Shown: positions 20,393 to 47,178, numbered from the stretch's first letter. The stretch: DNA of 64,000 nt from an uncultured Gemmatimonadales bacterium (GCA_963730185.1 CAVSQW010000006.1:384001-448000), one strand, 5' to 3'. The notes: generated by a model not told the origin, from the sequence alone. Made by a program: numbers and translations.

Positions 20393-21466
20393 TCAAGCGA
20401 GGCGCAGATGGCCTGCTCGTCCGAAGTCGGAGCGAAACTGGTCGACGTTCTGATGAAGCGCCGAGCTGAGCGCTTTCGCCGTGAAGTTCAGCTCCCCAAG
20501 GTGCCTCTCGACGAGCTTGGTCAGGGCTCGCGGTCGCTCTGACGGAAGCTCGACTGGCTCATCGGACCTTCGCAGCTCGATCCAGAACCTTCGAGCGTGA
20601 CGCTCAGATATCATCCCGGACCGCTGGGAGCGCATCAGAATTGCCTGCATGGACAGGCCCCAGTGCTTCTTCAGGCTGGCCATCCGGTGCAAGTTCAGAT
20701 ATCGAAGGTGACCGCTCACTGCCCGGAACGACATCAAGAACTCCGACGCAAATCGGAACGCTTCCTCCTCGGTGTCCTTGCCCTCGGCAGGATTACGGAG
20801 GTGGTGGTGAAGGACGATATGGGCAACGTCGTGTGCCAACGTGGGGCGCCAACGGTCAGTCGACTGGGTCGGGTTCATAATGACCATCGGCGGGAGCGAG
20901 TCGTTGGGTTCATAGATGCTGAGCCCGTCGACTTGTGCCGTCCCGAAGTCGATCGCCACAACCAGGATGCCATGGCTCTCAACGACACTTGTGAGGTCGC
21001 GGACCGGTCCCGGCGCGACGTTCCAATAGACGCGCAGTAGGCCGGCCGCGTCCTCTGGGCTCTTGCCCTCCTTGGCGAGGTCGGTCAAGAGCACCCGGGG
21101 GGTGAGATCGGCGTCCAGGCTTCGCAGCAGGATCTCGATTCGCAGCCGAAAGAGGTTGACCGTGGCCCGGATCGCGGCAACGTCCCGGGCCCCGATCCGG
21201 GTCTTCTTCCGGAAGAACGTTGCTGGCACCTGCGTGAACCGCACGGGATGTCGGAAGAGTGAAACGGGATAGTCCAGGCGCTCCGCGATGCTGTCGAGGA
21301 CTTCGTCCGTCGGCCTGATGATCCCGGCCTCCATCTGAGAGAGAGCGCCCTGGGTGACCCCGACTGCCTTGGCGAGGGCCGTTTGCGAGAGGCGACGGGA
21401 CTCACGCCCGATAACCAGCATGAGGGGCGAGAACTCAGCCACGCGCGTCCTGGTGTTGCGTTCCAT
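20393..21466 (-). CDS. XRE HTH fused to an ImmA/IrrE (DUF955) metallopeptidase-like domain
   Basis: RESRRLSQTALAKAVGVTQGALSQMEAG HTH; VDGLS, TLAHDVAH, EEEAFRFASEFLM, LKKHWGLS. Confidence 0.88.
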   Translation of the reverse strand: MERNTRTRVAEFSPLMLVIGRESRRLSQTALAKAVGVTQGALSQMEAGIIRPTDEVLDSIAERLDYPVSLFRHPVRFTQVPATFFRKKTRIGARDVAAIRATVNLFRLRIEILLRSLDADLTPRVLLTDLAKEGKSPEDAAGLLRVYWNVAPGPVRDLTSVVESHGILVVAIDFGTAQVDGLSIYEPNDSLPPMVIMNPTQSTDRWRPTLAHDVAHIVLHHHLRNPAEGKDTEEEAFRFASEFLMSFRAVSGHLRYLNLHRMASLKKHWGLSMQAILMRSQRSGMISERHARRFWIELRRSDEPVELPSERPRALTKLVERHLGELNFTAKALSSALHQNVDQFRSDFGRAGHLRLA

Positions 21467-21529
21467 CGGTCTCACTCCTACGCCGCTGCTCTTCCTGGGC
21501 CTCGATGTCCGCCGCGCTGTCGCGCAGGG

Positions 21530-31512: not shown

Positions 31513-31836
<324 letters not shown>

Positions 31837-32185: not shown

Positions 32186-33874
32186 GTGAACAAGACCAAC
32201 GAGGTGGCGGCGACCCCGGGATCGCCCGACGTGGAGACCTGGCAGCGCACCACCCTTGCTGCCAGCCTCGAGCGGCTCCGACCGCGACGCGAGGCGTTCA
32301 CGACGCTGTCGGGACTGCCGGTCAAGGAGCTCTACACGGCCGACGACCTGAAGGACGTCGATCCGGCCCGGGACATCGGGTTTCCGGGGGAGTATCCCTA
32401 TACCCGGGGCGTCCACGCGACCATGTACCGCGCCCGGCCCTGGACGATTCGCCAGGTCGCCGGTTTCGGCACGGCCGAGGATACCAACGGACGCTACCGG
32501 TACCTGCTGGCGCACGGGGAGACCGGGTTGTCGACGGACTTCGACCTTCCCACCCTCCTCGGCTACGACTCGGATCACCCGATGGCGGTGCCCGAGATCG
32601 GCAAAATCGGCGTCGCGGTGGATACCATCGACGACGTCCATCTCCTGATGAAGGACATTCCGCTCGATCAGGTCTCGACCTCCTACACCGTCAACGCGTC
32701 GGCCTTCGTACTGATGGGGATGTACGAGGTGGTGGCGAAATCCCAGGGGGTGCGCGCCGACCAGATCACCGGAACCATCCAGAACGACATTCTGAAGGAA
32801 TACACCGCGCAGAACGAGTACATCTATCCGCCGGCCGATGCCGTCCGGCTGGTCGTCGACACGATGGAGTACGCGGCCACGACGATGCCGCGGTACAACC
32901 CCGTCAGCGTCTCCGGCTATCACATTCGGGATGCCGGGTCGACCGCGGTGCAGGAGCTGGCGTTTACCCTGGCGGCGGGTCACTGCTACGTGACCGAGGC
33001 CGTCGAGCGCGGCTTGTCGGCCGATTTCGTGGCCCCGCGAGTGTCCTTCTTCTGGAACATCCAGAACGACTTCTTCGAGGAGATCTGCAAGCTGCGGGCG
33101 GCGCGGCGGCTCTGGGGACGGATGATGCGCGACTGGGTCGGCGCCAAGGATCCCCGTTCCTGGACGATGCGGGCCCATTCGCAGACCTCGGGCGTGAGCC
33201 TGACCGCGCAGCAGCCCGACAACAACATTGCCCGAACGGCGATTCAGGCCCTGGCCGCGGTGCTGGGTGGCACCCAGTCGCTCCATACGAACTCGAAGGA
33301 CGAGGCATATCAGATTCCCTCGGAAGGCGCGATCAAGATCGCGGTCCGGACCCAACAGATCCTGGCCTTGGAGAACCGGGTCGCGGATGTGGTCGACCCG
33401 TTGGGCGGCTCCTACTACGTCGAGTCGCTCACGACCCGGCTCGAGGAGGAGGCCGAGGCGCTGATCCGCCAGGTGCTGGATCGGGGCGGCATGGTCCAGT
33501 GCATCCAGGACGGGTTCATTCAGCGCCAGATCGCCGATGCGTCGGCCGCCTACCAGCAGGCCGTGGAGGCGAAATCCGAATTCATCGTCGGTGTCAACGT
33601 GCATGCCGAGCCGGAGGGCGAGCTGCCATTCGAGCCGTTCGTGCTCGATCCGGGTCTGGCCGAGCGACAGATCAAGCGAACCCAGGGGATTCGGCGGGCT
33701 CGGGCCCAGGCGGAGGTGGCCAGCGCCCTCAGGGCCATCGAGCAGGCGGCTCGAGGTGGCGAGAACACGATGCCCAGTACGGTTCGCGCGATCAAGGCGC
33801 AGGCAACCGTGGGCGAGATCTGCGATGTGCTCCGGGAAGTCTTCGGCGGGTACCGGGCGCCGATCGTCTACTAG
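32186..33874 (+). CDS. B12-dependent acyl-CoA mutase large (substrate-binding) subunit, HcmA-like; predicted 2-aminoisobutyryl-CoA mutase
   Basis: GTG start with GGAGG RBS, 562 aa; PGEYPYTRG, RPWTIRQVAGFG, GLSTDFDLPT, GTIQNDILKEYTAQ, SGYHIRDAG, GGTQSLHTN. Confidence 0.93.
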   Translation: MNKTNEVAATPGSPDVETWQRTTLAASLERLRPRREAFTTLSGLPVKELYTADDLKDVDPARDIGFPGEYPYTRGVHATMYRARPWTIRQVAGFGTAEDTNGRYRYLLAHGETGLSTDFDLPTLLGYDSDHPMAVPEIGKIGVAVDTIDDVHLLMKDIPLDQVSTSYTVNASAFVLMGMYEVVAKSQGVRADQITGTIQNDILKEYTAQNEYIYPPADAVRLVVDTMEYAATTMPRYNPVSVSGYHIRDAGSTAVQELAFTLAAGHCYVTEAVERGLSADFVAPRVSFFWNIQNDFFEEICKLRAARRLWGRMMRDWVGAKDPRSWTMRAHSQTSGVSLTAQQPDNNIARTAIQALAAVLGGTQSLHTNSKDEAYQIPSEGAIKIAVRTQQILALENRVADVVDPLGGSYYVESLTTRLEEEAEALIRQVLDRGGMVQCIQDGFIQRQIADASAAYQQAVEAKSEFIVGVNVHAEPEGELPFEPFVLDPGLAERQIKRTQGIRRARAQAEVASALRAIEQAARGGENTMPSTVRAIKAQATVGEICDVLREVFGGYRAPIVY

Positions 33875-33896: not shown

Positions 33897-34295
33897 ATGA
33901 GTCGACCGTTGCGTGTGGTCGTGGCAAAGCCGGGGCTGGATGGTCACGATCGTGGAGCGAAAATCATCGCGCGAGCCTTCCGCGACGCGGGGATGGAGGT
34001 CATCTACACCGGGATCTTTCAGACGACGGAGATGATCGTCCGCACGGTCCTCGAGGAGGATGCCGACGTGCTGGGACTGAGCATCCTCTCGGGAACGCAC
34101 CTGCATTTCGCCGAGGAGATCTGCCGAGCGCTGACCGAGCAGGCCGTGAAGGAGGTGCTGGTGGTGATGGGCGGCACGATCCCGCCGACCGACATCGGCG
34201 CCGTCAAGGGCTTCGGGGTGGCCGAGGTGTTCGGGCCGGGGACGGCCACGGGCACGATCGTGGACTTCGTCCGGCAGTGGCACGATGCCCAATGA
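33897..34295 (+). CDS. Acyl-CoA mutase small cobalamin-binding subunit
   Basis: AKPGLDGHDRGAK (DxHxxG), GLSILSG, GGTIP, VFGPGT. Confidence 0.95.
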   Translation: MSRPLRVVVAKPGLDGHDRGAKIIARAFRDAGMEVIYTGIFQTTEMIVRTVLEEDADVLGLSILSGTHLHFAEEICRALTEQAVKEVLVVMGGTIPPTDIGAVKGFGVAEVFGPGTATGTIVDFVRQWHDAQ

Positions 34296-35845
34296 CCCGG
34301 CTGGAGCACGGTAGTCCAGCGCGAGTGGACGCGCTCCTGGCCCGGGCGGCGATCAGCGTCCCCAACCGGGAGGCGGTCCGCTTCGAGGGACGGAGCTGGA
34401 CCTATCGGGAGGTCCACGACCGGGCCCGCCGCCTCGCGGGCGGCTTGGCCGCGATCGGCGTGGCCCCGGGCGACCGAGTCGCGCTCTGGACACCCAACCG
34501 ACCGGAGTTCGTCGAGGTGTTCTTCGGCGTGCCCCAATTGGGCGCGATCCTCGCTCCGCTGGACTGCTGGTGGCACTGGCGCGAAGCCGCCGAGGCGCTC
34601 GGCCAGCTGCGGCCGAAGGTGCTCATCGTGGGGTCGCCACAGGTGGCGATGGTGGCGCAGGAGCTCGAGGCGATTCGCGAGCTCGGGGTCGAACGGGTGC
34701 TGTGTCTCGACCAGCCGCCGGGCGGCGTGATCCTGGGCTCCTATCAGCGGACTCTCGCCGACGCGCGGCCGCTCGAGGCGCCGTTGCCGGTCGACCCCAG
34801 TGCGCCGGCCGCGATCCTCTTCACCTCCGGCTCGACCGGCCGATCGAAGGGTGCCGTCCATACCCACGCCGGTCTCCTGGCGGCGGCGACCACGATGACG
34901 GCCGAGCTGCCCTTCGTCGACGGCGAACGGACGCTCCATTTCCTCCCCCTGTTCTCCTCCTGTCTCGAGCACCTGCTCCCCCTCACGCTGGCGCGGGCGA
35001 CCCACCTCATCCTGCCGGCCTTCGACGCGCAGTTGGTGTGGGACAGCGTCCGCGAAGCCCGTGTCACCCATTTCGACGCCGTGCCCACGACCCTCCGCCG
35101 GCTCCTGGAGGTGGCGCCGAGCGAGATCCCGTCGTCGCTGCGGCTGATTTCGTACGCCTCGGAGCCAATGCCCGAGCCGCTGATCACGGCGCTGCTCGAG
35201 CGACTGCCGAGCGTCACGTTCGTCCAGTTCTACGGCATGATCGAGCAGCTCTGTCTCACCGTGCTGGAGGCGCCCGACCAGCTCCGGAAGATCGGAACGG
35301 TGGGCCGCCCGATGCTGGGCGCCGAGCTCGCGGTCCGGAGCCTTCCCGGCATCGACGGTCCCGGAGAGATCGTCGCGCGGGGTCCGACGATGTTCGCCGG
35401 GTACTGGCAGGACCCGGCCACGACGGCGCAGGTGATGCTCGACGGATGGATGCGGACCGGCGACCTGGGCCGCTTCGACGAGGACGGATTCCTCGTGCTC
35501 GAGGGCCGTCTCAAGGAGATGATCAAGACGGGCGGGCTCACGGTGGTCCCGGCCGAGGTCGAGGCCACGCTGGCAGGACACCCCGCCGTTCGGGACGTCG
35601 CGGTGATTGGCGTCCCCGACCCGGAGTGGGGCGAGGCCGTGCATGCGATGGTGGTGCTGGTGCCTGGAGCCACGGTCGGGGAAACGGAGCTCAAGGGGTA
35701 TTGCCGCGACCGGCTGGCAGGCTACAAACGACCGAAGGTCATTCACGTGGTGCCGGAGCTACCGAGAACCGGGATCGGCAAGATCGCTCGTCGGACCGTG
35801 CGCGACCACGTGTTGGCCGTCGAGACCCCCGAAAGGCGACGGTGA
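34292..35845 (+). CDS. Acyl-CoA synthetase / AMP-binding ligase
   Basis: ATGA overlap; LFTSGSTGRSKG, FYGMIE, GWMRTGDLG, GRLKEMIKTGG, LPRTGIGKI. Confidence 0.92.
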   Translation: MTRLEHGSPARVDALLARAAISVPNREAVRFEGRSWTYREVHDRARRLAGGLAAIGVAPGDRVALWTPNRPEFVEVFFGVPQLGAILAPLDCWWHWREAAEALGQLRPKVLIVGSPQVAMVAQELEAIRELGVERVLCLDQPPGGVILGSYQRTLADARPLEAPLPVDPSAPAAILFTSGSTGRSKGAVHTHAGLLAAATTMTAELPFVDGERTLHFLPLFSSCLEHLLPLTLARATHLILPAFDAQLVWDSVREARVTHFDAVPTTLRRLLEVAPSEIPSSLRLISYASEPMPEPLITALLERLPSVTFVQFYGMIEQLCLTVLEAPDQLRKIGTVGRPMLGAELAVRSLPGIDGPGEIVARGPTMFAGYWQDPATTAQVMLDGWMRTGDLGRFDEDGFLVLEGRLKEMIKTGGLTVVPAEVEATLAGHPAVRDVAVIGVPDPEWGEAVHAMVVLVPGATVGETELKGYCRDRLAGYKRPKVIHVVPELPRTGIGKIARRTVRDHVLAVETPERRR

Positions 35846-35849
35846 GCCC

Positions 35850-36233
35850 ATGGAAGGCGTCATTCGAGTGCGGATGTCCGCCGCGGACGGTCATTACGGC
35901 GGTGGCCTGGTCGCCGGTGCGACGGTGTTGAAGCTGGTCGGTGATGCGCTCACGGAAGCGCTGATCCGCCGCGACGGCGACGAGGGGCTGGAGCGGACCA
36001 TGACGGTCGAGCTGCTCGCGCCGGTGTACAGCGGGGACTACCTCGAGGCGAGGGCGAAGCTGCTGTCGATCGGGAACTCCTCGCGGCGATTCGAGTGCAC
36101 GGTGCACAAGCTCATTCGACTGGTGAGTCCGGACGACTCGGCGGCCGACGTGTTGAACGAGCCGTTGCTCGTTCTGAAGGCCACCGGAGTGGCCGTGGTC
36201 CCCTTGCCGAAGCAACGAGCGCGGGGATCATGA
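35850..36233 (+). CDS. kal: 3-aminobutyryl-CoA ammonia-lyase-like hotdog-fold protein
   Basis: 127 aa; IRVRMSAADGHYGGGLVAG, GDALTEALIRRDGDEGL, LAPVYSGDYLEA, GNSSR match the Kal pattern (RMS..DAHYGG.LVDG, GD.ATE..I..DGDEGL, APV.AGDYIEA). Confidence 0.85.
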   Translation: MEGVIRVRMSAADGHYGGGLVAGATVLKLVGDALTEALIRRDGDEGLERTMTVELLAPVYSGDYLEARAKLLSIGNSSRRFECTVHKLIRLVSPDDSAADVLNEPLLVLKATGVAVVPLPKQRARGS

Positions 36234-37198
36234 CCGCCCCGGAGGCGCTCCTGGCGCGGGCCCGGGCCGGGCAGATTGCCCCGACGGCGCGCCTGCTCTC
36301 GATCGTCGAGAACGACGAGCCAGGAGCGGAGCAGGTGATTCGCGGCACCTTCGCCGACGTCGGGCGGGCGATCCGGATCGGAATTACGGGGTCGCCGGGA
36401 ACCGGCAAGAGCACATTGGTGGCCTCGCTCCTCGCGGCCTATCGGCGAGTCGCGTCTCGGGTGGCGGTCATCGCCGTCGACCCCTCCAGTCCGTACACCG
36501 GAGGGGCGATCCTCGGGGACCGAATCCGGATGCGGGACACCTCCCTCGACCCGGGTGTCTTCATCCGGAGCATGTCGAATCGAGGCGCCTCCGGAGGGCT
36601 GGCCCGGGCGACGGGACGCGTCGCGGACCTCCTCGATGCGCTGGGGTTCGAGGTGATCCTGGTGGAGACGGTCGGCGCGGGGCAGCAGGAGATCGACGTG
36701 GTCCGGCTGGTCGACACGGTCTCGGTCCTCACGATTCCCGGCGCCGGTGACGACATTCAGGCGATCAAGGCCGGCATCCTCGAGATCGCGGACGTCCTGG
36801 TGGTCAACAAGGCCGACCAGCCGGGCGCGGACCAGGCCGTCAGGGACCTGACCCAGATGCTGAGCCTCGGCGCCCCCCGCAACGACTGGAAACCGCCGGT
36901 CGTCCGCACCTCGGCGGCGACCGGCGCCGGGATTGATGACCTCGTCGCCGCCTTGGCGCGGCACCGGGCCTGGGCCGCGGCGTCCGGAGAGACCGAGCGC
37001 CGCCGCCAGGCGGCGATGCGCAGCGAGCTCGAAGCGCTGATGCGCGAGCGGGTGCTTCGAGAGCTGGCCCGCCGGATCGATGCCACGGCGGTTACCGACG
37101 CCGCGTCGCGGGTGATGCGGAAGCAGCTCGATCCCTATGACGCGGTCGAGCTGCTCTTGGCCGGCACCGAGAGAACCTCCGCCACCCGAACCGAGTGA
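36230..37198 (+). CDS. meaB: MeaB/ArgK G-protein chaperone for B12 mutases
   Basis: ATGA overlap; GITGSPGTGKST, AVDPSSPYTGGAILGDRIRM, ETVGAGQ, IQAIKAGILEIAD, VNKAD. Confidence 0.95.
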   Translation: MTAPEALLARARAGQIAPTARLLSIVENDEPGAEQVIRGTFADVGRAIRIGITGSPGTGKSTLVASLLAAYRRVASRVAVIAVDPSSPYTGGAILGDRIRMRDTSLDPGVFIRSMSNRGASGGLARATGRVADLLDALGFEVILVETVGAGQQEIDVVRLVDTVSVLTIPGAGDDIQAIKAGILEIADVLVVNKADQPGADQAVRDLTQMLSLGAPRNDWKPPVVRTSAATGAGIDDLVAALARHRAWAAASGETERRRQAAMRSELEALMRERVLRELARRIDATAVTDAASRVMRKQLDPYDAVELLLAGTERTSATRTE

Positions 37199-37206
37199 CC
37201 GTAACG

Positions 37207-39108
37207 ATGCGACCGTTCTTCGCAAGCCTGTTCCTGCTGGTCGGTGCGACCGGCCTGGGCTCCGCCCAGACCCCGAAGCCGGCGCCCTTCAACGACGTTC
37301 CGAAGGACTTCGAGGTTCGGACTCTCCCGAAGGACTTCGTCACCCGGGTCGAAATGATTCCGATGCGCGACGGGGTCAAGCTCAAGACCTACATCGTGCT
37401 GCCGAAGGGCGCGAAGGACGCGGCCATCATTCTGGAGCGGACACCCTACGATGCCGGGAGGTTCTTCCCGAACCCCGACGCCGATCCGCTGTTCCAGGCC
37501 GGCTACATCCGCGTCTTCCAGGACGTGCGCGGGAAGTACGGCTCGGAAGGCGACTACGTGATGAGCCGACCGGCTCGCGGACCGCTCAATCCGACCGAGG
37601 TGGATCACTCGACCGACGCTTGGGATACCATCGACTGGCTGGTGAAGCACCTGCCCGAGTCCAACCGGAAGGTGGGGATGATCGGTGCGTCGTACGACGG
37701 CTTCACGGTCGCCATGGGGCTGCTCGACCCGCACCCGGCCCTCAAGGCCGCCGTGGCGCAAGGCCCCCTGCTCGATGGATGGATGGGCGACGACTGGTTC
37801 CACTACGGGGCCTTCCGCAACATGATGTTGGGCTACGTCCACTCGCAGACCGCGCAGCGGGGGGCGGGAGTGATCCCACCCAGCGATACCTACGACAAGT
37901 ACGAGGAGTTCCTCCGAGCCGGCTCGACCGGAGACTACATCCGAGCGAATGGCCTCGACCGGTTGCCCTGGATTGCCCGGGCCATGGCGCATCCCGCGTA
38001 CGACGGCTATTGGCAGGGGCAGGCGGTCGACCGGTTGCTGGTGGCCCGGCCGTCGACCGTGCCGACGCTCTGGACGCAGGGGCTCTGGGATCAGGAGGAC
38101 ATGTACGGCGCCAACCACGTGTGGCGCGGCTTGAAGGCCGCCGGTCACGAGGCCACCAACTGGCTGGTGCTGGGACCGTGGAATCACATCCAAGTGCACG
38201 GCCTCGGCACCTCGTTGGGTCCCCTGGCGTGGGGTGAGGAAACCGCCCGGATCTATCGCCGCGACATGCTGCTGCCGTTCTTCGACGAGCACCTCCGAGG
38301 CGGCCCGCCCGCCAATCTGGCGCGGGTAGCCGTGTACAATACCGGTGAGAAGCGCTGGGAACGGTTCTCCACCTGGCCCACGGCGTGCGACCGGGGCTGC
38401 GCCACCGGGCTCACGCCGCTCTATCTCACCGCCGGGTTCGGCTTGGCGTTCGACCAGCCGGCGACCGACGGCGGTGATACCTACCTCAGCGATCCCGCCA
38501 AGCCGGTACCGTTCCTGCCCCGCCCCGTGGTCGATCCGTTCGCGGAGCTCGGGATGGGATCGCTGGGGAATCCGTACGAGCCCTGGAGCAAATGGCTGGT
38601 GTGGGATCAGCGCTTCGTGGACGGTCGACCCGATGTCCTCTCCTACGTGACACCGGTCCTCACCTCACCAGTTGAAGTCCAGGGCGTCCCGATCGCGGAC
38701 ATCCGGGCTGAGACCACCGGCACCGACCTGGACGTCGTCGTGAAGCTGATCGACGTCTTCCCCAGCACCGATCCGATCAATCCCCAGGTGAGCGGCTATC
38801 AACTGCCCATCGCGCTGGACATCTTCCGAGGCCGCTACCGGGAGAGCTTCGCGCACCCGATCGCCACGCCGGCCAACACGCCGGAGCAATACCGCTTCGA
38901 GCTGCCTAACGTCAATCACGTGTTCCAGCCCGGACATCGGATCATGGTTCAGATCCAGTCGACCCTCTTCCCGCTGTACGACCGGAACCCGCAGCGCTTC
39001 GTCCCGAACATCTTCGACGCGAAGCCGGACGACTATCGCAAGGCCGAGATCACGATCCTCCGCTCCAAGGCGCAGCCCTCGGCGATCCTCCTGCCCACGG
39101 TCAACTGA
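37207..39108 (+). CDS. CocE/NonD family hydrolase, alpha-amino acid ester hydrolase-like, secreted
   Basis: Signal peptide; MIPMRDGVKL, RTPY, QDVRG, GASYDG, DGWMGDDWFHYGAFR, WDQEDMYGA, GPWNH; an alternative GTG at 37195 overlaps the meaB stop. Confidence 0.9.
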   Translation: MRPFFASLFLLVGATGLGSAQTPKPAPFNDVPKDFEVRTLPKDFVTRVEMIPMRDGVKLKTYIVLPKGAKDAAIILERTPYDAGRFFPNPDADPLFQAGYIRVFQDVRGKYGSEGDYVMSRPARGPLNPTEVDHSTDAWDTIDWLVKHLPESNRKVGMIGASYDGFTVAMGLLDPHPALKAAVAQGPLLDGWMGDDWFHYGAFRNMMLGYVHSQTAQRGAGVIPPSDTYDKYEEFLRAGSTGDYIRANGLDRLPWIARAMAHPAYDGYWQGQAVDRLLVARPSTVPTLWTQGLWDQEDMYGANHVWRGLKAAGHEATNWLVLGPWNHIQVHGLGTSLGPLAWGEETARIYRRDMLLPFFDEHLRGGPPANLARVAVYNTGEKRWERFSTWPTACDRGCATGLTPLYLTAGFGLAFDQPATDGGDTYLSDPAKPVPFLPRPVVDPFAELGMGSLGNPYEPWSKWLVWDQRFVDGRPDVLSYVTPVLTSPVEVQGVPIADIRAETTGTDLDVVVKLIDVFPSTDPINPQVSGYQLPIALDIFRGRYRESFAHPIATPANTPEQYRFELPNVNHVFQPGHRIMVQIQSTLFPLYDRNPQRFVPNIFDAKPDDYRKAEITILRSKAQPSAILLPTVN

Positions 39109-40103: not shown

Positions 40104-40965
40104 CTAGATCGTCGGCAGGACGAGCCGCACGTGCTCCGCGAAGGCGCTCACCAACGCGCTCGGTTGATCGCTGTCCACCGTGAGCGCGATCCCCACGCTC
40201 GGTAACGGCGGCAAGCCATTCTCCGCGGGGAGCACCCGCAGGTCCTCGGGCACGGCGGTCCGGGTGAGCACCGCGATCGCCTGCCCGGATCGGACCACCG
40301 CCGTCAGGCCCGCCAGACTCGCGCTGGCGTAGGCGATCCGATAGGCCCGACCGATCGCCTCGAGACTGCGGCGCGCCGCCTGGTGATCGAGCGTGTCAGG
40401 GTCGGTCAGCGCGAGCTGAAGCGGATCGACGCGCGGCACGTTCGACCCGACCGAGCCCACCCACACGAGCGGCTCCCGCCGAATGACCGTCTTGCCCTTC
40501 TCGCGCTCGGCCAAGGAGACGAGGGCGAGGTCCAAGCCATGGCGCTCAAGCCGCTCGAGGAGCCGGGGCGTGTGAGCGCAATGCACCTCCACGAGCACCC
40601 CCGGATGCTCGCGGGCGAAGCCGCGGAGCAAGTAGGGCAGGAAGACCACCGCGTAGTCGTCCGGACAGCCGAAGCGGATCGTCCCGACGAGTCCCTTTCC
40701 CGAGAGCTCGGCGAGCGCCTCGTCGTGGTACCGGAGGATCCGGTGGGCGTGGGCGAGCAGCCGCGTCCCGTGCGCGGTGAGGCTCACGCCTCGCCCGCTT
40801 CGATCCAGCAGGCTGTGACCGACGATCTCCTCGAGCCGCTTCACCTGGAGGCTGATGGCGGCCTGGGTCTTCCCGACCCGAGCGCCCGCCCGGCTGAGCG
40901 TTCCGGTCTCGGCGATGACGGCGAACGTCCGGAGCAACCGGAGGTCCAGCTCTTCGATCATGGCC

Positions 40966-40967
<2 letters not shown>
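40104..40967 (-). CDS. dgdR: LysR family regulator divergent from dgdA (DgdR-like)
   Basis: LDLRLLRTFAVIAETGTLSRAG, TQAAISLQVKRLE; the divergent arrangement with dgdA matches Burkholderia cepacia dgdR/dgdA. Confidence 0.8.
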
Positions 40968-42382
<1,415 letters not shown>

Positions 42383-42411
42383 ACGCCTCCATTCGCGAAT
42401 CGAGAGAATCC

Positions 42412-43296
42412 ATGGATCTCGTCGTCCGAAACCTCAGCAAGACCTATCCGAACGGCGTCCGCGCCCTCGACGGGATCGACCTCACGGTCGGTCCCGGGAT
42501 GTTCGGCCTCCTCGGCCCCAATGGGGCGGGCAAGTCGAGCCTGATGCGCACGCTCGCAACGCTCCAGCTCCCGGACACCGGCTCGATCCGGTTCGGGGAC
42601 CTCGACGTCCTGGCCGAGCCGGACGGGCTCCGGCGAATGCTCGGGTACCTGCCCCAGGAATTCGGGTTCTATCCCAGCCTGTCGGCCGAGCACACCCTCG
42701 ATCACTTCGCGGTGATGAAGGGCGTGATCGACCGGGCCGAGCGCCGATCCCTGGTGGCCGGCCTGCTCCAGCAAACGAATCTCTACGACGTGCGGAAGAA
42801 AGCGGTCGGCTCCTTCTCCGGCGGGATGAAGCAGCGGCTGGGCATCGCGGTGGCGCTGGCCGGGTCGCCCAAGCTTCTCATCGTCGACGAGCCGACGGCG
42901 GGGCTCGACCCGACCGAGCGGCACCGGTTCCTCAACCTGCTGGCGGAGATCGGCGAAGAGATCGTGGTGCTGCTCTCGACCCACATCGTCGAGGACGTTC
43001 GCGAGCTCTGCCAGGCGGTCGCCATCGTCGATCGGGGTCGGGTCGTGCTGCAGGGAGATCCGCGTGAGATCGTGGGCACCATGCGCGGCAAGGTCTGGCG
43101 GCGGGCGGTGGAGAAGCGCGACCTGGCGGCCGTCCGGGCCGGGCACCGGGTCATCTCGGTCCAGCTCCTGGCCGGGGCACCCGTGGCGCGGGTCTACAGC
43201 GAGACCCCGCCGGCCGGCTTCGAGCCGGCGGAGCCGGACCTCGAGGACGTCTACTTCTTCCATCTCGCCCCGGCCGACCGGGAGCTGGCGGCGTGA
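42412..43296 (+). CDS. ABC transporter ATP-binding protein
   Basis: GPNGAGKS, FSGGMKQR, IVDEPT, LSTH. Confidence 0.95.
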   Translation: MDLVVRNLSKTYPNGVRALDGIDLTVGPGMFGLLGPNGAGKSSLMRTLATLQLPDTGSIRFGDLDVLAEPDGLRRMLGYLPQEFGFYPSLSAEHTLDHFAVMKGVIDRAERRSLVAGLLQQTNLYDVRKKAVGSFSGGMKQRLGIAVALAGSPKLLIVDEPTAGLDPTERHRFLNLLAEIGEEIVVLLSTHIVEDVRELCQAVAIVDRGRVVLQGDPREIVGTMRGKVWRRAVEKRDLAAVRAGHRVISVQLLAGAPVARVYSETPPAGFEPAEPDLEDVYFFHLAPADRELAA

Positions 43297-46200
43297 TGTT
43301 CGGCGCCCTCTTCCGGTACGAGCTCCGGTACCATCTCAGTCGTCCGATCACCTGGCTTTACTTCGCGCTCTTCACCGCCGGATCGTTCGCGCTTGCCGGG
43401 TCCGACGTGATCCAGCTCGTAGGCGGCACCGGCCAGGTGATGCGCAACGCCCCCTGGGTGATCGTCCGGGCGATGCAGCTCGTGGCGACGGTGGGTCAGA
43501 TCGTCGTCGCCGGCCTGATCGGGAGCTCGATCCTCCGCGACTACGAATACCAGACGCACGAGCTCGTCTTCACCACCCGGATCAGCCGGTTTGCCTACCT
43601 GGGCGCGCGCTTCAGCGGCGGATTCGTGGTGATGGTGTTCGTCCACCTCGGCATTCCCCTCGGTCTCGCGCTCGGCACGCTGATGCCGGGGATCGATCCG
43701 GCCAAGCTCCTGCCGCTGAACCCGGCGGCGTACCTGGTGCCGTTCGTGGGGTTGGTGGTGCCGATGATTCTGGTGCTCTCGGCGATCTACTTCGCGGTCG
43801 GCGCCTTCACCCGGAGCGCCTTCGCGGTCCACACTCAGGGGATCGTGCTGTTCGTCGCCTGGCTGATCGCCCAGACCCTGATCGGCAGTCTGAACGACAT
43901 GAGGCTGGCCGGGTTGCTGGATCCGATCGGCTCGGCGCCCTACCTGATCGCCACCCGCTACTGGACGGTGGTCGAGAAGAACACCCAGATCGCGCCGTGG
44001 GGCGGGCTCCTGCTCGCCAACCGCCTGCTCTGGACCGGCGTGGCGCTCGCGATCGTGGCCCTCACCTTCGCCTTCTTCCGGTTCCGGGCGGCACCCCCCA
44101 CGATCGGCCGGCGCCGCAAGGTCGTTGCGGAGACACGGGAGGCCCCGGCCTTCAGCCTCGGGGCGCCCGACCAACGGTTCGATCGGCGGGCCTGGTGGCG
44201 GCAAGCCCGCTCGACCGCGGGGCTCACCTTCTGGGGCATCGTCCGTCAGGTCTCCTTCGCGGTCATCGTCACGATCGGCCTCGTCAACCTCGGGATCGCG
44301 GCGGCCTATGCGGAGACCATCTTCGGGCAGAAGGTCTGGCCGGTCACCTACACCGTGGTCGAAGTGCTCGACGGACAGTTCTTCCTCTTCTTCGTGGTCC
44401 TGATCGCCCTCTACGCCGGCGATACCGTGTGGCGGGAGCGGGAGCTTCGGTGCGACCAGATCGTGGACACCCTTCCCGCCCCGACCGGAGCGCGGGTGCT
44501 CGGCAGTCTGACCGGTCTGATCCTGGTACAGATCGCCGTGCTGGTGATCCTCGCGGCGGCCGGCATCGTGTTCCAGGCGGCCACCGGATACTTCCACTTC
44601 GAGCTCCCGCTCTACTTCGAGTTCCTGTTCGGGACGCTCCTCCCTTCCCTGATTCAGCTGACCGTGTTCGCGGTGGCGGTTCACGTTCTGGTCGACCACA
44701 AGTACCTGGGCCACGCGCTGGTGATCCTGGCCTTCGTGCTCCGGATCGCGGCGCCGAGGCTCGGATTCGAGCACCCGCTCTTTCAATTCGCCAAGGCGGC
44801 CCCGTTCCGCTACTCCGACATGAACGGCTTCGGCCCGTACGTGCCGGGGCTCTTCTGGAACGCGCTCTACTGGAGCGGCGTGGCCGGGCTGCTGGGCGTG
44901 GGGGCGTATCTCCTCTGGGTGCGGGGCACCGACACGCCCTGGCGGATGCGGCTCCGGGAGGCGGGCCGCCGCTGGCGGGGGCCGGTGCGTCCGCTCGCCG
45001 GAGCGTGCCTGCTGGTGACGCTCGGCGCCGGCGGCGTGGTGTTCTACAACGCCAATGTGCTCAACCACTACCATCCGGCGTCCTATGCCCGGCGGCTGGC
45101 CGCCGAGTACGAGCGGGTCTACCGGCCGATGACCCGGATTCCGACCCCGAAGCTGGTGGACGTCGATGCCCGGGCCGACCTCGAGCCGGAGCACCTCGCG
45201 TTCGGGGTCAGCGGCACGTTCACCTACGTGAACGAACAGCCGAGCCCGATCGACACCATCCTGGTCTCGATGTTCGCGTCCCGCGAGCTCCGGGTGGACA
45301 GCATGGGCTGGGGCCGGCCGGCGACTTTGGTGACGGACGACTCCACCCACGGTGCCCGACTCTACCGGCTCGACCCGCCGCTCGCCCCGGGCGATACCGT
45401 TCGGCTCCGCTATCGCGCGCACTATCGAGCCCGCGGCTTTCCGATCGGTGGACCGGACACGGCGGCCGCGCAGATCGGCATCCGAAACGCGATCTCGGGC
45501 AACGGCTCGTTCCTCAGCTTCCAGTACTTCCCGTTCGTCGGATACCTGACCTGGCGCGAGCTGGAGTCGGACGCGGAGCGGCGGAAGGAGGGCCTGGCGC
45601 CCAAGGTGCGGGCCGCGCCGATCGACGACGACTCGGCCCGGGCGGTGACCTACCTGGGGATCAACGCCGACTGGATCAGCTTTCACGGCACCGTGAGCAC
45701 GGCGCCCGACCAGATCGCGATCGCCCCGGGATACCTGGTCCGCGAGTACCAGGAGAACGGGCGCCGGGTATTCGAGTACCGCTCGGACGAGCCGATGCTG
45801 GCCTTCTATTCCTTCCTTTCGGCGCGATACCAGGTGAAGCGCGACACGGCCGGCGGGATCGCCCTCGCGGTCTACTACCACAAGGGCCACGAGTTCAACG
45901 TGGACCGGATGATGGCGGCGATGAAGGACGCGCTGGCCGACTATTCGGCCCGATTCGGGCCCTATCAGTTCAAGCAGCTCCGGATCATCGAATTTCCGCG
46001 CTACTCCCAGTTCGCCCAGTCCTTCCCCAACACCGTGCCGTTCTCGGAGAACATCGGGTTCATCCTTCGGGCCGGACACCGCAACGACGACATCGACACG
46101 CCGTACTACGTGACCGCCCACGAAACCGCGCACCAGTGGTGGTTCCATCAGGTCATCGGCGGCAACGTCCAGGGCGCCACCATGCTGTCCGAGTCCCTGG

Positions 46201-46904
46201 CCAACTACTCGGCGCTGGTTCTGATGGAGAAGACCTTCGGCCTGAACAACGTGCGGAAATTCCTGCTCCAGCAGCTCGATTCCTATCTGGTGGGCCGGGG
46301 ACGGGAAGCCAAGGCCGAGCGGCCGCTGATGCTGGTGGAGAACCAGTCGTACATCCACTACAACAAGGGCTCGCTCGCGCTCTACGCCCTCCGCGACCTG
46401 ATCGGCGACGAGGCGATGAACCGGGCGCTGTCGCGGTTCGTGAAAGACAAGGCGTTCCAGAAGCCCCCGTTCACCACCAGCCGGGAGCTGCTCGGCTATC
46501 TGGAGGCCGAGACGCCGGACTCGGTGCGGTACGTGCTCGATGATCTCTTCCGGACGATCACGCTCTGGGACGACGCCGTCGAGGAGGCGACCGCCACCCG
46601 CCGCCCGGACGGCCGGTACGACGTGGCCATCCAGGTCCGCGCCGCCAAGGCGCGGGCCGACAGTCTGGGAAACGAGCACCGGGTGCCGATCGCCGATCTG
46701 ATCGACATCGGGGTGTTCGGGGAGCCGGCGCCGGGATACAGCCTCGGCAAGCCGCTCTACCTGGAGAAGCAGTGGATCCGGACGGCGGACACCACCTTCC
46801 ACGTCGTGGTCGACGGGCTCCCGCGGAAGGCCGGGATCGACCCCTACGACAAGCTCATCGACCGAAACCCGCGGGACAACGTGATGACCGTCGGACTCAA
46901 GTGA
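43293..46904 (+). CDS. ABC-2 type permease fused to an M1 family aminopeptidase domain
   Basis: Many N-terminal TM segments; C-terminal FAQSFP, AHETAHQWW, LSESLANY, YNKGS. Confidence 0.88.
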   Translation: MMFGALFRYELRYHLSRPITWLYFALFTAGSFALAGSDVIQLVGGTGQVMRNAPWVIVRAMQLVATVGQIVVAGLIGSSILRDYEYQTHELVFTTRISRFAYLGARFSGGFVVMVFVHLGIPLGLALGTLMPGIDPAKLLPLNPAAYLVPFVGLVVPMILVLSAIYFAVGAFTRSAFAVHTQGIVLFVAWLIAQTLIGSLNDMRLAGLLDPIGSAPYLIATRYWTVVEKNTQIAPWGGLLLANRLLWTGVALAIVALTFAFFRFRAAPPTIGRRRKVVAETREAPAFSLGAPDQRFDRRAWWRQARSTAGLTFWGIVRQVSFAVIVTIGLVNLGIAAAYAETIFGQKVWPVTYTVVEVLDGQFFLFFVVLIALYAGDTVWRERELRCDQIVDTLPAPTGARVLGSLTGLILVQIAVLVILAAAGIVFQAATGYFHFELPLYFEFLFGTLLPSLIQLTVFAVAVHVLVDHKYLGHALVILAFVLRIAAPRLGFEHPLFQFAKAAPFRYSDMNGFGPYVPGLFWNALYWSGVAGLLGVGAYLLWVRGTDTPWRMRLREAGRRWRGPVRPLAGACLLVTLGAGGVVFYNANVLNHYHPASYARRLAAEYERVYRPMTRIPTPKLVDVDARADLEPEHLAFGVSGTFTYVNEQPSPIDTILVSMFASRELRVDSMGWGRPATLVTDDSTHGARLYRLDPPLAPGDTVRLRYRAHYRARGFPIGGPDTAAAQIGIRNAISGNGSFLSFQYFPFVGYLTWRELESDAERRKEGLAPKVRAAPIDDDSARAVTYLGINADWISFHGTVSTAPDQIAIAPGYLVREYQENGRRVFEYRSDEPMLAFYSFLSARYQVKRDTAGGIALAVYYHKGHEFNVDRMMAAMKDALADYSARFGPYQFKQLRIIEFPRYSQFAQSFPNTVPFSENIGFILRAGHRNDDIDTPYYVTAHETAHQWWFHQVIGGNVQGATMLSESLANYSALVLMEKTFGLNNVRKFLLQQLDSYLVGRGREAKAERPLMLVENQSYIHYNKGSLALYALRDLIGDEAMNRALSRFVKDKAFQKPPFTTSRELLGYLEAETPDSVRYVLDDLFRTITLWDDAVEEATATRRPDGRYDVAIQVRAAKARADSLGNEHRVPIADLIDIGVFGEPAPGYSLGKPLYLEKQWIRTADTTFHVVVDGLPRKAGIDPYDKLIDRNPRDNVMTVGLK

Positions 46905-47178
46905 GCGCCGGCTCCGAGCCATCACCGTACCGCAGCACGGCACCGCGCGGGCCGCGGTGCCCCGGAAGCACCTCCCTCCTCCCGAGATGACGGCTGGGAG
47001 GAGGTCCGGATTACCCCCGGCAGCGACACCAGCGTCGAGACGCTGCTCGCCAGGGCAGGCAAGGGGAAGTAGGAGGCACGGCGGCGTCGAAAGGAACCGA
47101 GTGGCGGTGGTTGTTGACGAAGTGTCGCTTGCCCACGACATTCCCGCTCACACCATCGCCCACTCATTCGAGCGCACC

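Follow-up and report, generated by a model that had tools for sequence, protein, structure and literature searches.

A clade of B12-dependent acyl-CoA mutases encoded with Kal-type ammonia lyases and predicted to act on Aib-CoA

The mutase operon and its surroundings

The window, i.e., the whole stretch of 64,000 nucleotides analyzed here, contains an operon whose first gene encodes the substrate-binding subunit of a B12-dependent acyl-CoA mutase. The reading frame starts with GTG and encodes 562 amino acids. It is followed by genes for the B12-binding small subunit, a CoA ligase, a Kal-type ammonia lyase, a MeaB chaperone and an amino-acid-ester hydrolase, and the junctions downstream of the mutase are 4-bp overlaps or short gaps (Table 1). 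With a TIM-barrel subunit, a B12 subunit carrying the DxHxxG motif, and MeaB, the operon has the hallmarks of the AdoCbl acyl-CoA mutase superfamily. Within 4 kb past the ester hydrolase lie a LysR-type regulator gene and dgdA, the gene for 2,2-dialkylglycine decarboxylase (DGD). The dgdA product is a full-length orthologue of Burkholderia DGD, the next family matching at only E 6e-63; the true start of the gene is probably about 100 nt further in. A relic of a second dgdA precedes the mutase. Its match to the intact dgdA ends after 150 nt, and no such relic was seen at the equivalent place in the two closest relatives (L001 and L002).

The ligase has no significant BLASTP match to the HCL ligase of Methylibium. 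Its Glu226 lies four residues past the A4 motif, as does a glutamate in 54 of the 54 clade-linked ligases that cover the site; by analogy with adenylation-domain structures, this position probably lines the acyl pocket. The Kal-type protein is 51% identical to a Fusobacterium homologue and scores 127 bits against NF052388, below the curated cut-off of 160, which one copy from a genome with a mutase of the same clade (V1) passes (173 bits). It keeps the helix Asp/Glu and the DGDEGL segment of the Fusobacterium and Acetoanaerobium homologues, residues whose catalytic roles are putative, save for one Asp of Fusobacterium Kal that is replaced by Ala. This Asp is kept in 21 of 53 clade-linked sequences.

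Two further features of the window were noted. Downstream of dgdA (42344-47000), genes for an ABC ATPase and a 1203-aa permease/M1-peptidase-like protein form a pair that recurs in 12-14 loci of the mutase clade described below. On the minus strand at 20393-21475, an XRE/ImmA-like regulator-peptidase gene lies beside a CocE fragment, at what is possibly a mobile-element boundary.

Table 1. Features of the window, in window coordinates, and loci of a second Val-type lineage (V2)
Feature	Position	Strand	Basis or remark
Relic 5' fragment of second dgdA, directly upstream of mutase	31579..31728	+	86% nt identity over 150 nt; Aminotran_3 E 8e-7
Predicted Aib-CoA mutase: substrate-binding subunit of a B12-dependent acyl-CoA mutase, clade V1 (Val/Asp/Gln)	32186..33874	+	PF01642 E 3e-208
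Val91 codon (HcmA Ile90 position)	32456..32458	+	Alignments to 4r3u and Methylibium HcmA
Glu112 codon (HcmA Gln111 position); not a specificity residue	32519..32521	+	Model position and clade counts
Asp118 codon (HcmA Asp117 position); putative partner of substrate amine	32537..32539	+	Alignments; model
Gln209 codon (HcmA Gln208 position; Arg in MCM)	32810..32812	+	Alignments
B12-binding small subunit	33897..34295	+	PF02310; TIGR00640 above cut-off
AMP-forming CoA ligase, non-HCL type, invariant Glu226; predicted Aib-CoA ligase	34292..35845	+	PF00501
Predicted 3-aminobutyryl-CoA ammonia lyase, a hotdog protein of the Kal/Acl family	35850..36233	+	NF052388 E 5e-37; PDB 4mtu E 2e-15
MeaB-type G-protein chaperone	36230..37198	+	TIGR00750 above cut-off
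Alpha-amino acid ester hydrolase (S15/CocE) orthologue	37195..39108	+	PDB 1mpx E 3e-219; start overlaps meaB stop
LysR regulator, divergent from dgdA, DgdR-like position	40104..40967	-	Pfam
2,2-dialkylglycine decarboxylase (DGD, dgdA)	40979..42382	+	PDB 1d7r E 3e-215; ~7 kb from mutase
V2 mutase loci	L237:4224-5936 (G328), L241-L246, L248, L255-L257, L260-L262		Operons with DGD or Kal

Active-site residues and phylogenetic position of the mutase

An earlier note on this DNA had described the mutase as carrying a non-standard specificity signature of Val, Asp, Gln and a GETG motif. Alignment to HcmA of PDB 4r3u and of Methylibium, set against human and Mycobacterium tuberculosis methylmalonyl-CoA mutase (MCM), confirms this description. 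The motifs are RQVAG from residue 89 (nt 32450; segment 89-95), GETG from residue 111 (nt 32516) and STDFD from residue 116 (nt 32531; both within segment 111-120), and KEYTAQ at residues 204-209. Val91, Glu112, Asp118 and Gln209 align with Ile90, Gln111, Asp117 and Gln208 of HcmA, and with Tyr, Gln, Ala and Arg, in that order, in the MCMs. All four residues are invariant in the best 120 database homologues, and Val, Asp and Gln are kept in 65 of 65 sequences of the Val-type clade (hereafter V1) taken from genomes. The signature is thus neither chance nor sequencing error.

These residues do not carry equal information. Every Ile-type (60) and Phe-type (13) sequence also has Gln at the 209 position, which therefore excludes MCM only; we rejected it as a diagnostic residue. 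To place the others, we used an AlphaFold model of the mutase (pLDDT 84), whose best fold match is HcmA 4R3U (TM 0.92, 47% identity), also the best PDB match by sequence. Val91 and Asp118 are located at the C-terminal ends of the first two barrel strands, Asp118 in strand 114-119; this is presumably the B12-facing end, as in the rest of the family. In HcmA, Asp117 binds the substrate hydroxyl. Glu112, by contrast, is in the loop preceding strand 114-119, at the opposite end of the barrel. Nor does it track the clade: 4 of 65 V1 sequences and all 121 sequences of the V2 lineage have Gln at this position, and six of the 13 Phe-type ones share the Glu. The suggestion that this extra Glu might pair with an amino group was therefore dropped.

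The earlier note had further held that the protein is not a methylmalonyl-CoA mutase, although pipelines would label it so. Both parts stand. The protein has no equivalents of the MCM residues Tyr89 and Arg207, and it scores 623 bits against the NCBIfam MCM profile NF006944, whose cut-off is 876; methylmalonyl-CoA mutase is indeed the name that annotation pipelines give to such proteins. Two further mutases are encoded in the window's genome, one with Phe/Gln and one with Tyr/Arg (C2:138936), and ordinary MCM function is thus covered elsewhere. The mutase of the window is the only Val-type enzyme found in this genome. At G000 C15:720414 there is a non-MCM mutase with RLFSG and Phe/Ala/Gln, accompanied by a MeaB and a small subunit of its own.

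Related loci were collected by a scan of species genomes, which yielded 79 loci, 68 of them V1 (Val/Asp/Gln) and 11 mostly Phe-type. V1 occurs in Gemmatimonadota, Pseudomonadota, Chloroflexota and Actinomycetota. No additional Val or Ile loci came from 150 genomes drawn within the order of G002, and among the top plasmid matches listed there was no Val-type mutase, the best being 53% identical. As an Ile-type control we used 123 loci, namely three HCM operons from plasmids and a sample of 120 out of about 1100 metagenome loci, 40 of which lacked flanks. Trees were built with FastTree and, for a reduced set, IQ-TREE, from sequences that did not include characterized ICM, RCM or pivalyl-CoA mutases. 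V1 and the Ile-type form separate clades with support of 100 (65 and 60 full-length sequences, respectively), and each is supported at 100/99 in a 35-sequence IQ-TREE. V1 does not branch inside the clade of Methylibium and Xanthobacter HcmA. Sisterhood of V1 and HCM is absent from the trees, yet an AU test does not reject it (p 0.09, with one long-branch sequence left out). On these sequence comparisons, V1 is a real and distinct mutase clade outside the characterized HCMs, probably HCM-like in its working but not a member of that group.

The likenesses and differences are as follows. V1 shares with HcmAB of Aquincola tertiaricarbonis (4R3U) and Methylibium petroleiphilum PM1 the split into A and B subunits, MeaB, a CoA ligase in the operon, the Asp117 and Gln208 residues, the fold, and a predicted 1,2-migration of the thioester on a tertiary carbon. 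It differs in overall sequence (47-49% identity), in having Val for Ile90, in its separate clade, in the family of its ligase, and in being accompanied by a Kal-type lyase and DGD where HCM has HCL and GntR. With the Phe-type mutases (ICM/IcmF, RcmAB-like) V1 has in common the Gln at the Arg207 position and many backbone residues, and in two trees it branches beside the Phe-type sequences sampled (90/91; 94/90, unstarred). Phe at the Tyr89 position without Asp117, which we take to define the ICM/RCM type, is not what V1 has: Val and Asp stand where the Phe-type has Phe and Ala, and Kal is found in none of 11 Phe-type loci. Fold, cofactor and chaperone are those of MCM, without the Tyr/Arg carboxylate clamp.

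Gene context across genomes

The counts below refer either to all loci or to well-flanked loci, defined as those with at least 3.5 kb on each side. Because the loci were found with patterns derived from the query and include near-duplicates, the counts are not independent, and p-values are omitted. One locus in the counts (L021, genome G326) is from an unpublished assembly; no conclusion hangs on it.

The lyase and the ligase distinguish V1 from the other types. Of the 44 well-flanked V1 loci, 38 encode Kal, against none of the 22 Ile-type loci listed and none of 10 Phe-type loci; over all loci the figures are 51/68 for V1 and 0/123 for the Ile-type loci listed. Six well-flanked V1 loci have no Kal gene, and in four of the five genomes searched, G326 among them, Kal is encoded elsewhere. 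The Glu-type ligase is present in 39 of 44 well-flanked V1 loci (Ile-type, 0/22 listed; Phe-type, 0), and the HCL ligase shows the reverse (V1, 0/44; Ile-type, 20/22 listed; Phe-type, 0). The HCL operon typical of HcmA is likewise missing from all 68 V1 loci, against 57 of the 123 Ile-type loci listed with HCL. That is, the ligase type is swapped together with the lyase. Lysine fermentation could have accounted for Kal; full-length lysine 5,6-aminomutase was detected in only 2 of 45 V1 genomes, in a search whose positive control was found, and we rejected this explanation for the other 43. The corresponding search of the window's own genome lacked a responding positive control. A BKACE gene is located on another contig of this genome.

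DGD is linked to 9 of 44 well-flanked V1 loci, compared with 0/22 Ile-type (listed) and 0/10 Phe-type loci, and to 12 of 68 V1 loci overall (0/123 Ile-type listed). The DGD-linked loci fall in both deep subclades of V1 and differ in gene order. Elsewhere, too, V1 or V2 mutases have LysR homologues as neighbors, and an orthologue of the alpha-amino acid ester hydrolase, a candidate for freeing Aib from peptides or esters, occurs in 18 of 68 V1 loci. Genome-wide, DGD was found in 16 of 62 V1 genomes and is missing from 46, many of them incomplete. Among Gemmatimonadota it is present in 9 of 13 V1 genomes and in 6 of 301 genomes of a phylum sample. All six of the latter, however, belong to the window's genus and four have no V1; among genus mates of the window's genome, DGD is present in 5 of 5 and V1 in only one. 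The enrichment at genome level is therefore confounded by genus, and we rejected it as proof.

Other neighbors of V1 would, although mutually unrelated, each yield an amino acid. Peptidases and peptide transporters are encoded in L058, L052, L040 and G328. In G336, hydantoinase A/B and a carbamoylase-family amidase lie beside both mutase copies; the whole cluster is tandemly duplicated there (L222 and L223, G336:C1), and both copies are about 60% identical to the query. L054/L218 and L066 have a glutamine-synthetase-like ligase, an SDR, a C26 hydrolase and an aldehyde dehydrogenase, a set that presumably resembles gamma-glutamylation routes for alkylamines. Such a module is joined to the cluster in L054/L218, L066 and L053/L221, with an R2lox-like protein added in L066, and could form a tert-alkylamine route. 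From these neighbors, we infer that dimethylhydantoin, aminomethylpropanol and peptaibols are among the feeder substrates; a literature search on dimethylhydantoin and aminomethylpropanol returned nothing relevant.

A second Val/Asp/Gln mutase, 46% identical to the query and with its own Kal, lies beside V1 in G328. It represents a lineage, V2, for which at least 120 close homologues were counted, Mesorhizobium and its relatives supplying many of them. The 14 V2 loci considered comprise 11 from V1 genomes and three from a 200-genome family draw; among 19 second pattern matches, four were not mutases. Kal lies within the fetched stretch in 9 of the 14 loci, a co-directional DGD gene immediately precedes the mutase in five, and 13 have one or the other. 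In the five DGD-type loci a crotonase-fold gene follows, with a carnitine-type ligase in four. V2 nests inside the Ile-type (HCM) clade on a long branch (0.73). It shares Ile88, Val91, Tyr104, Leu121 and Leu125 with V1 against the Ile clade; residues 62-150 join V1 with V2 weakly (SH-aLRT 82), and residues 151-560 join V2 with HCM (100). These trees suggest that the pocket segments are alike through convergence or exchange.

The earlier note had weighed against its reading the case in which Val-type homologues group within the HCMs. V1 forms a clade of its own; V2 does lie among the HCMs, and has an amino-acid context as well. Since V2 has given up its HCL surroundings in favor of amino-acid genes, we read it as support for an amino substrate, which may be Aib or isovaline. 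We consider it a tentative idea, somewhat less likely than its opposite, that acyl-CoA mutases were recruited twice for alpha-amino-acyl-CoAs, once outside and once inside the HCM clade, converging on or exchanging the Val/Asp pocket segment, and that genomes with two mutases, duplicate ligases and lyases, and dense peptidase arrays encode a complete system for peptaibol degradation in which Aib and isovaline are split between the two mutases. The G328 island (G328:C6:570000-613000; L237-L239), about 45 kb long, has a pair each of Val mutase and Kal genes, an aldehyde dehydrogenase gene and many genes for peptidases (S9, S15, M19, S10 and DPP-IV-like), and is a candidate peptaibol-degradation locus.

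Proposed route and alternatives

A mutase that has the Asp of HCM and is placed upstream of a Kal-type lyase argues for an amino analogue of the HCM reaction. Judging from sequence, the mutase probably converts Aib-CoA to 3-aminobutyryl-CoA, which would then give crotonyl-CoA and ammonia; that its substrate is some 2,2-dialkylglycyl-CoA is more probable still. In the route we propose, hydrolases and transporters would supply free Aib, and the Glu226 ligase would convert it to Aib-CoA. The adenosyl radical would abstract a methyl hydrogen, the thioester carbonyl would migrate 1,2, and the hydrogen would be returned. Asp118 would hold the protonated amine where HCM has the hydroxyl of 2-hydroxyisobutyryl-CoA, and this protonated amine would presumably limit the oxidation to which an alpha-amino radical is prone. 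The Kal-type lyase would eliminate ammonia to give crotonyl-CoA, and this would be converted further to acetyl-CoA. The route would retain the nitrogen and all four carbons, where the neighboring DGD loses carbon as acetone and CO2. The earlier suggestion that an amino substrate is paired by the Asp receives strong, if indirect, support from the gene context relative to the Ile-type control, with the contact of Asp and amine as a prediction. No residues that demand an amine were found, Asp118 and Gln209 being identical to those of HCM.

CoA activation followed by elimination of ammonia from a beta-aminoacyl-CoA is common to this route, to Kal in lysine fermentation, to Acl, and to the BvaAB beta-valine route; here, however, the beta-aminoacyl-CoA would come from a B12-dependent carbon-skeleton mutase, and lysine fermentation genes were mostly not found. 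The available text of PMC4619459 describes Kal and Acl as removing ammonia from beta-aminoacyl-CoAs, and that of PMC7782822 describes DGD as an Aib enzyme. DGD, physically linked here, and the Rhodococcus AibH1H2GF monooxygenase route (PMC7782822) have the same predicted substrate; the proposed route would differ in being CoA- and B12-dependent and oxygen-independent, and in losing neither CO2 nor acetone. No Aib-CoA or amino-acyl-CoA mutase was found in the full-text literature, most subscription papers and patents being outside that search. If the prediction holds, the enzyme would catalyze a new reaction, a skeleton change from an alpha,alpha-dialkyl to a beta-amino acid without PLP, within a third, oxygen-independent and carbon-conserving Aib route. 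Aib occurs in peptide antibiotics of fungi, and the route would point to recycling of fungal peptaibols by soil and water bacteria and, from the neighboring genes, possibly of the man-made Aib precursors dimethylhydantoin, aminomethylpropanol and tert-butylamine. It would also correct the annotation of a family named methylmalonyl-CoA mutase in four phyla, and, operated in reverse, the route offers a possible enzymatic synthesis of Aib from crotonyl-CoA and ammonia. V1 is carried by cultured strains, among them Pseudaminobacter salicylatoxidans DSM 6986 (L027), whose mutase is 81% identical, and Steroidobacter flavus CGMCC 1.10759 (L022), so that this reading is directly testable.

The same chemistry might serve mainly isovaline-CoA, via 3-aminopentanoyl-CoA to pentenoyl-CoA, or a larger 2,2-dialkylglycyl-CoA, with Aib handled by DGD or V2; we consider this preference unlikely, and isovaline-CoA may be a side substrate. 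The two amino acids occur together in peptaibols. The smaller size of Val relative to Ile favors this reading; Val is found in both lineages, however, and thus is no mark of a larger substrate. A pattern search of 50 V1 genomes found V2 in 11, several of which have both mutases on one contig along with Kal and ligase genes in duplicate, an arrangement that suggests the two enzymes divide substrates between them. Genomes with two different Val mutases also lend some plausibility to the earlier suggestion that Val might admit isovaline. V2 was not found in most V1 genomes, however, nor is there a second Val mutase in that of the window. Genes resembling 3-hydroxybutyryl-CoA dehydrogenase (8/68 V1 loci) fit a C4 product. 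Gene context as such does not separate Aib from isovaline.

Quite improbable, in our estimate, is a hydroxyacyl-CoA mutase within an Aib island, in which acetone or butanone from DGD would be joined to formyl-CoA by an AcHACL-like TPP enzyme to give 2-hydroxyisobutyryl- or 2-hydroxy-2-methylbutyryl-CoA as mutase substrates. The Asp and Gln are compatible with it, and so are the rhizobial V2 operons in which the crotonase-fold gene takes the place of Kal. The available portion of PMC12025749, which does not indicate the reaction direction, gives for HcmA I90V a kcat/Km of 10.9 per M per s against 481 for the wild type, and a kcat of 0.02 against 0.05 per s; on these figures, Val therefore makes a poor HCM, its activity weakened rather than abolished. 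For a Bacillus Hcm V92I variant, the portion of PMC11599936 available states that there was no change facing the substrate. Val by itself is not diagnostic of the substrate. According to the accessible parts of PMC8760513 and PMC7176365, an AcHACL-like lyase allows a route from ketone and formyl-CoA to hydroxy substrates, and in the latter source a lyase and mutase route serves acetone in Desulfococcus biacutus. A homologue of the TPP lyase (7pt1, E 4e-135) occurs in 10 of 68 V1 loci, and in 10 of the 123 Ile-type loci listed. This route, however, leaves unexplained Kal and the Glu-type ligase, the most constant partners of V1, and the window's genome (82% complete) has no close TPP homologue (best, 26%). 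In addition, the position that is Gln128 in AcHACL, and Gln in the Methylibium copy as well, is occupied by Glu in the five Val-linked TPP enzymes aligned (L058:4044-5795, L039, L007, L243 and L219). The L219 enzyme is fused to a RidA-like domain. The Glu-type enzymes are possibly aminoacyl-CoA lyases that give a B12-independent branch.

Just as improbable is a beta-amino or other small amino acid as substrate, in which 3-aminobutyrate or 3-aminoisobutyrate would be deaminated by ligase and Kal, and the mutase would interconvert 3-aminoisobutyryl- and 4-aminobutyryl-CoA or alanyl- and beta-alanyl-CoA, or run towards Aib synthesis. The hydantoinase and carbamoylase could also give 3-aminoisobutyrate, and ECH_2-family genes are present in eight actinobacterial loci; a mutase would be superfluous for a beta-amino acid, yet it stays with the ligase and lyase across four phyla, and the linkage to DGD favors 2,2-dialkyl amino acids. 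The synthetic direction is disfavored by the AMP-forming ligase and by the absence of peptide-synthetase genes among the neighbors scanned. Ligase and lyase modules for beta-amino acids without a mutase do exist, according to the part of PMC4619459 available. We also found Kal-like hotdog genes with CoA ligases and no mutase, in L217 (Paenarthrobacter pTC1) and in L216 and L215 (Rhizobium plasmids), one of the Kal-like genes being fused to an alanine-racemase-like domain.
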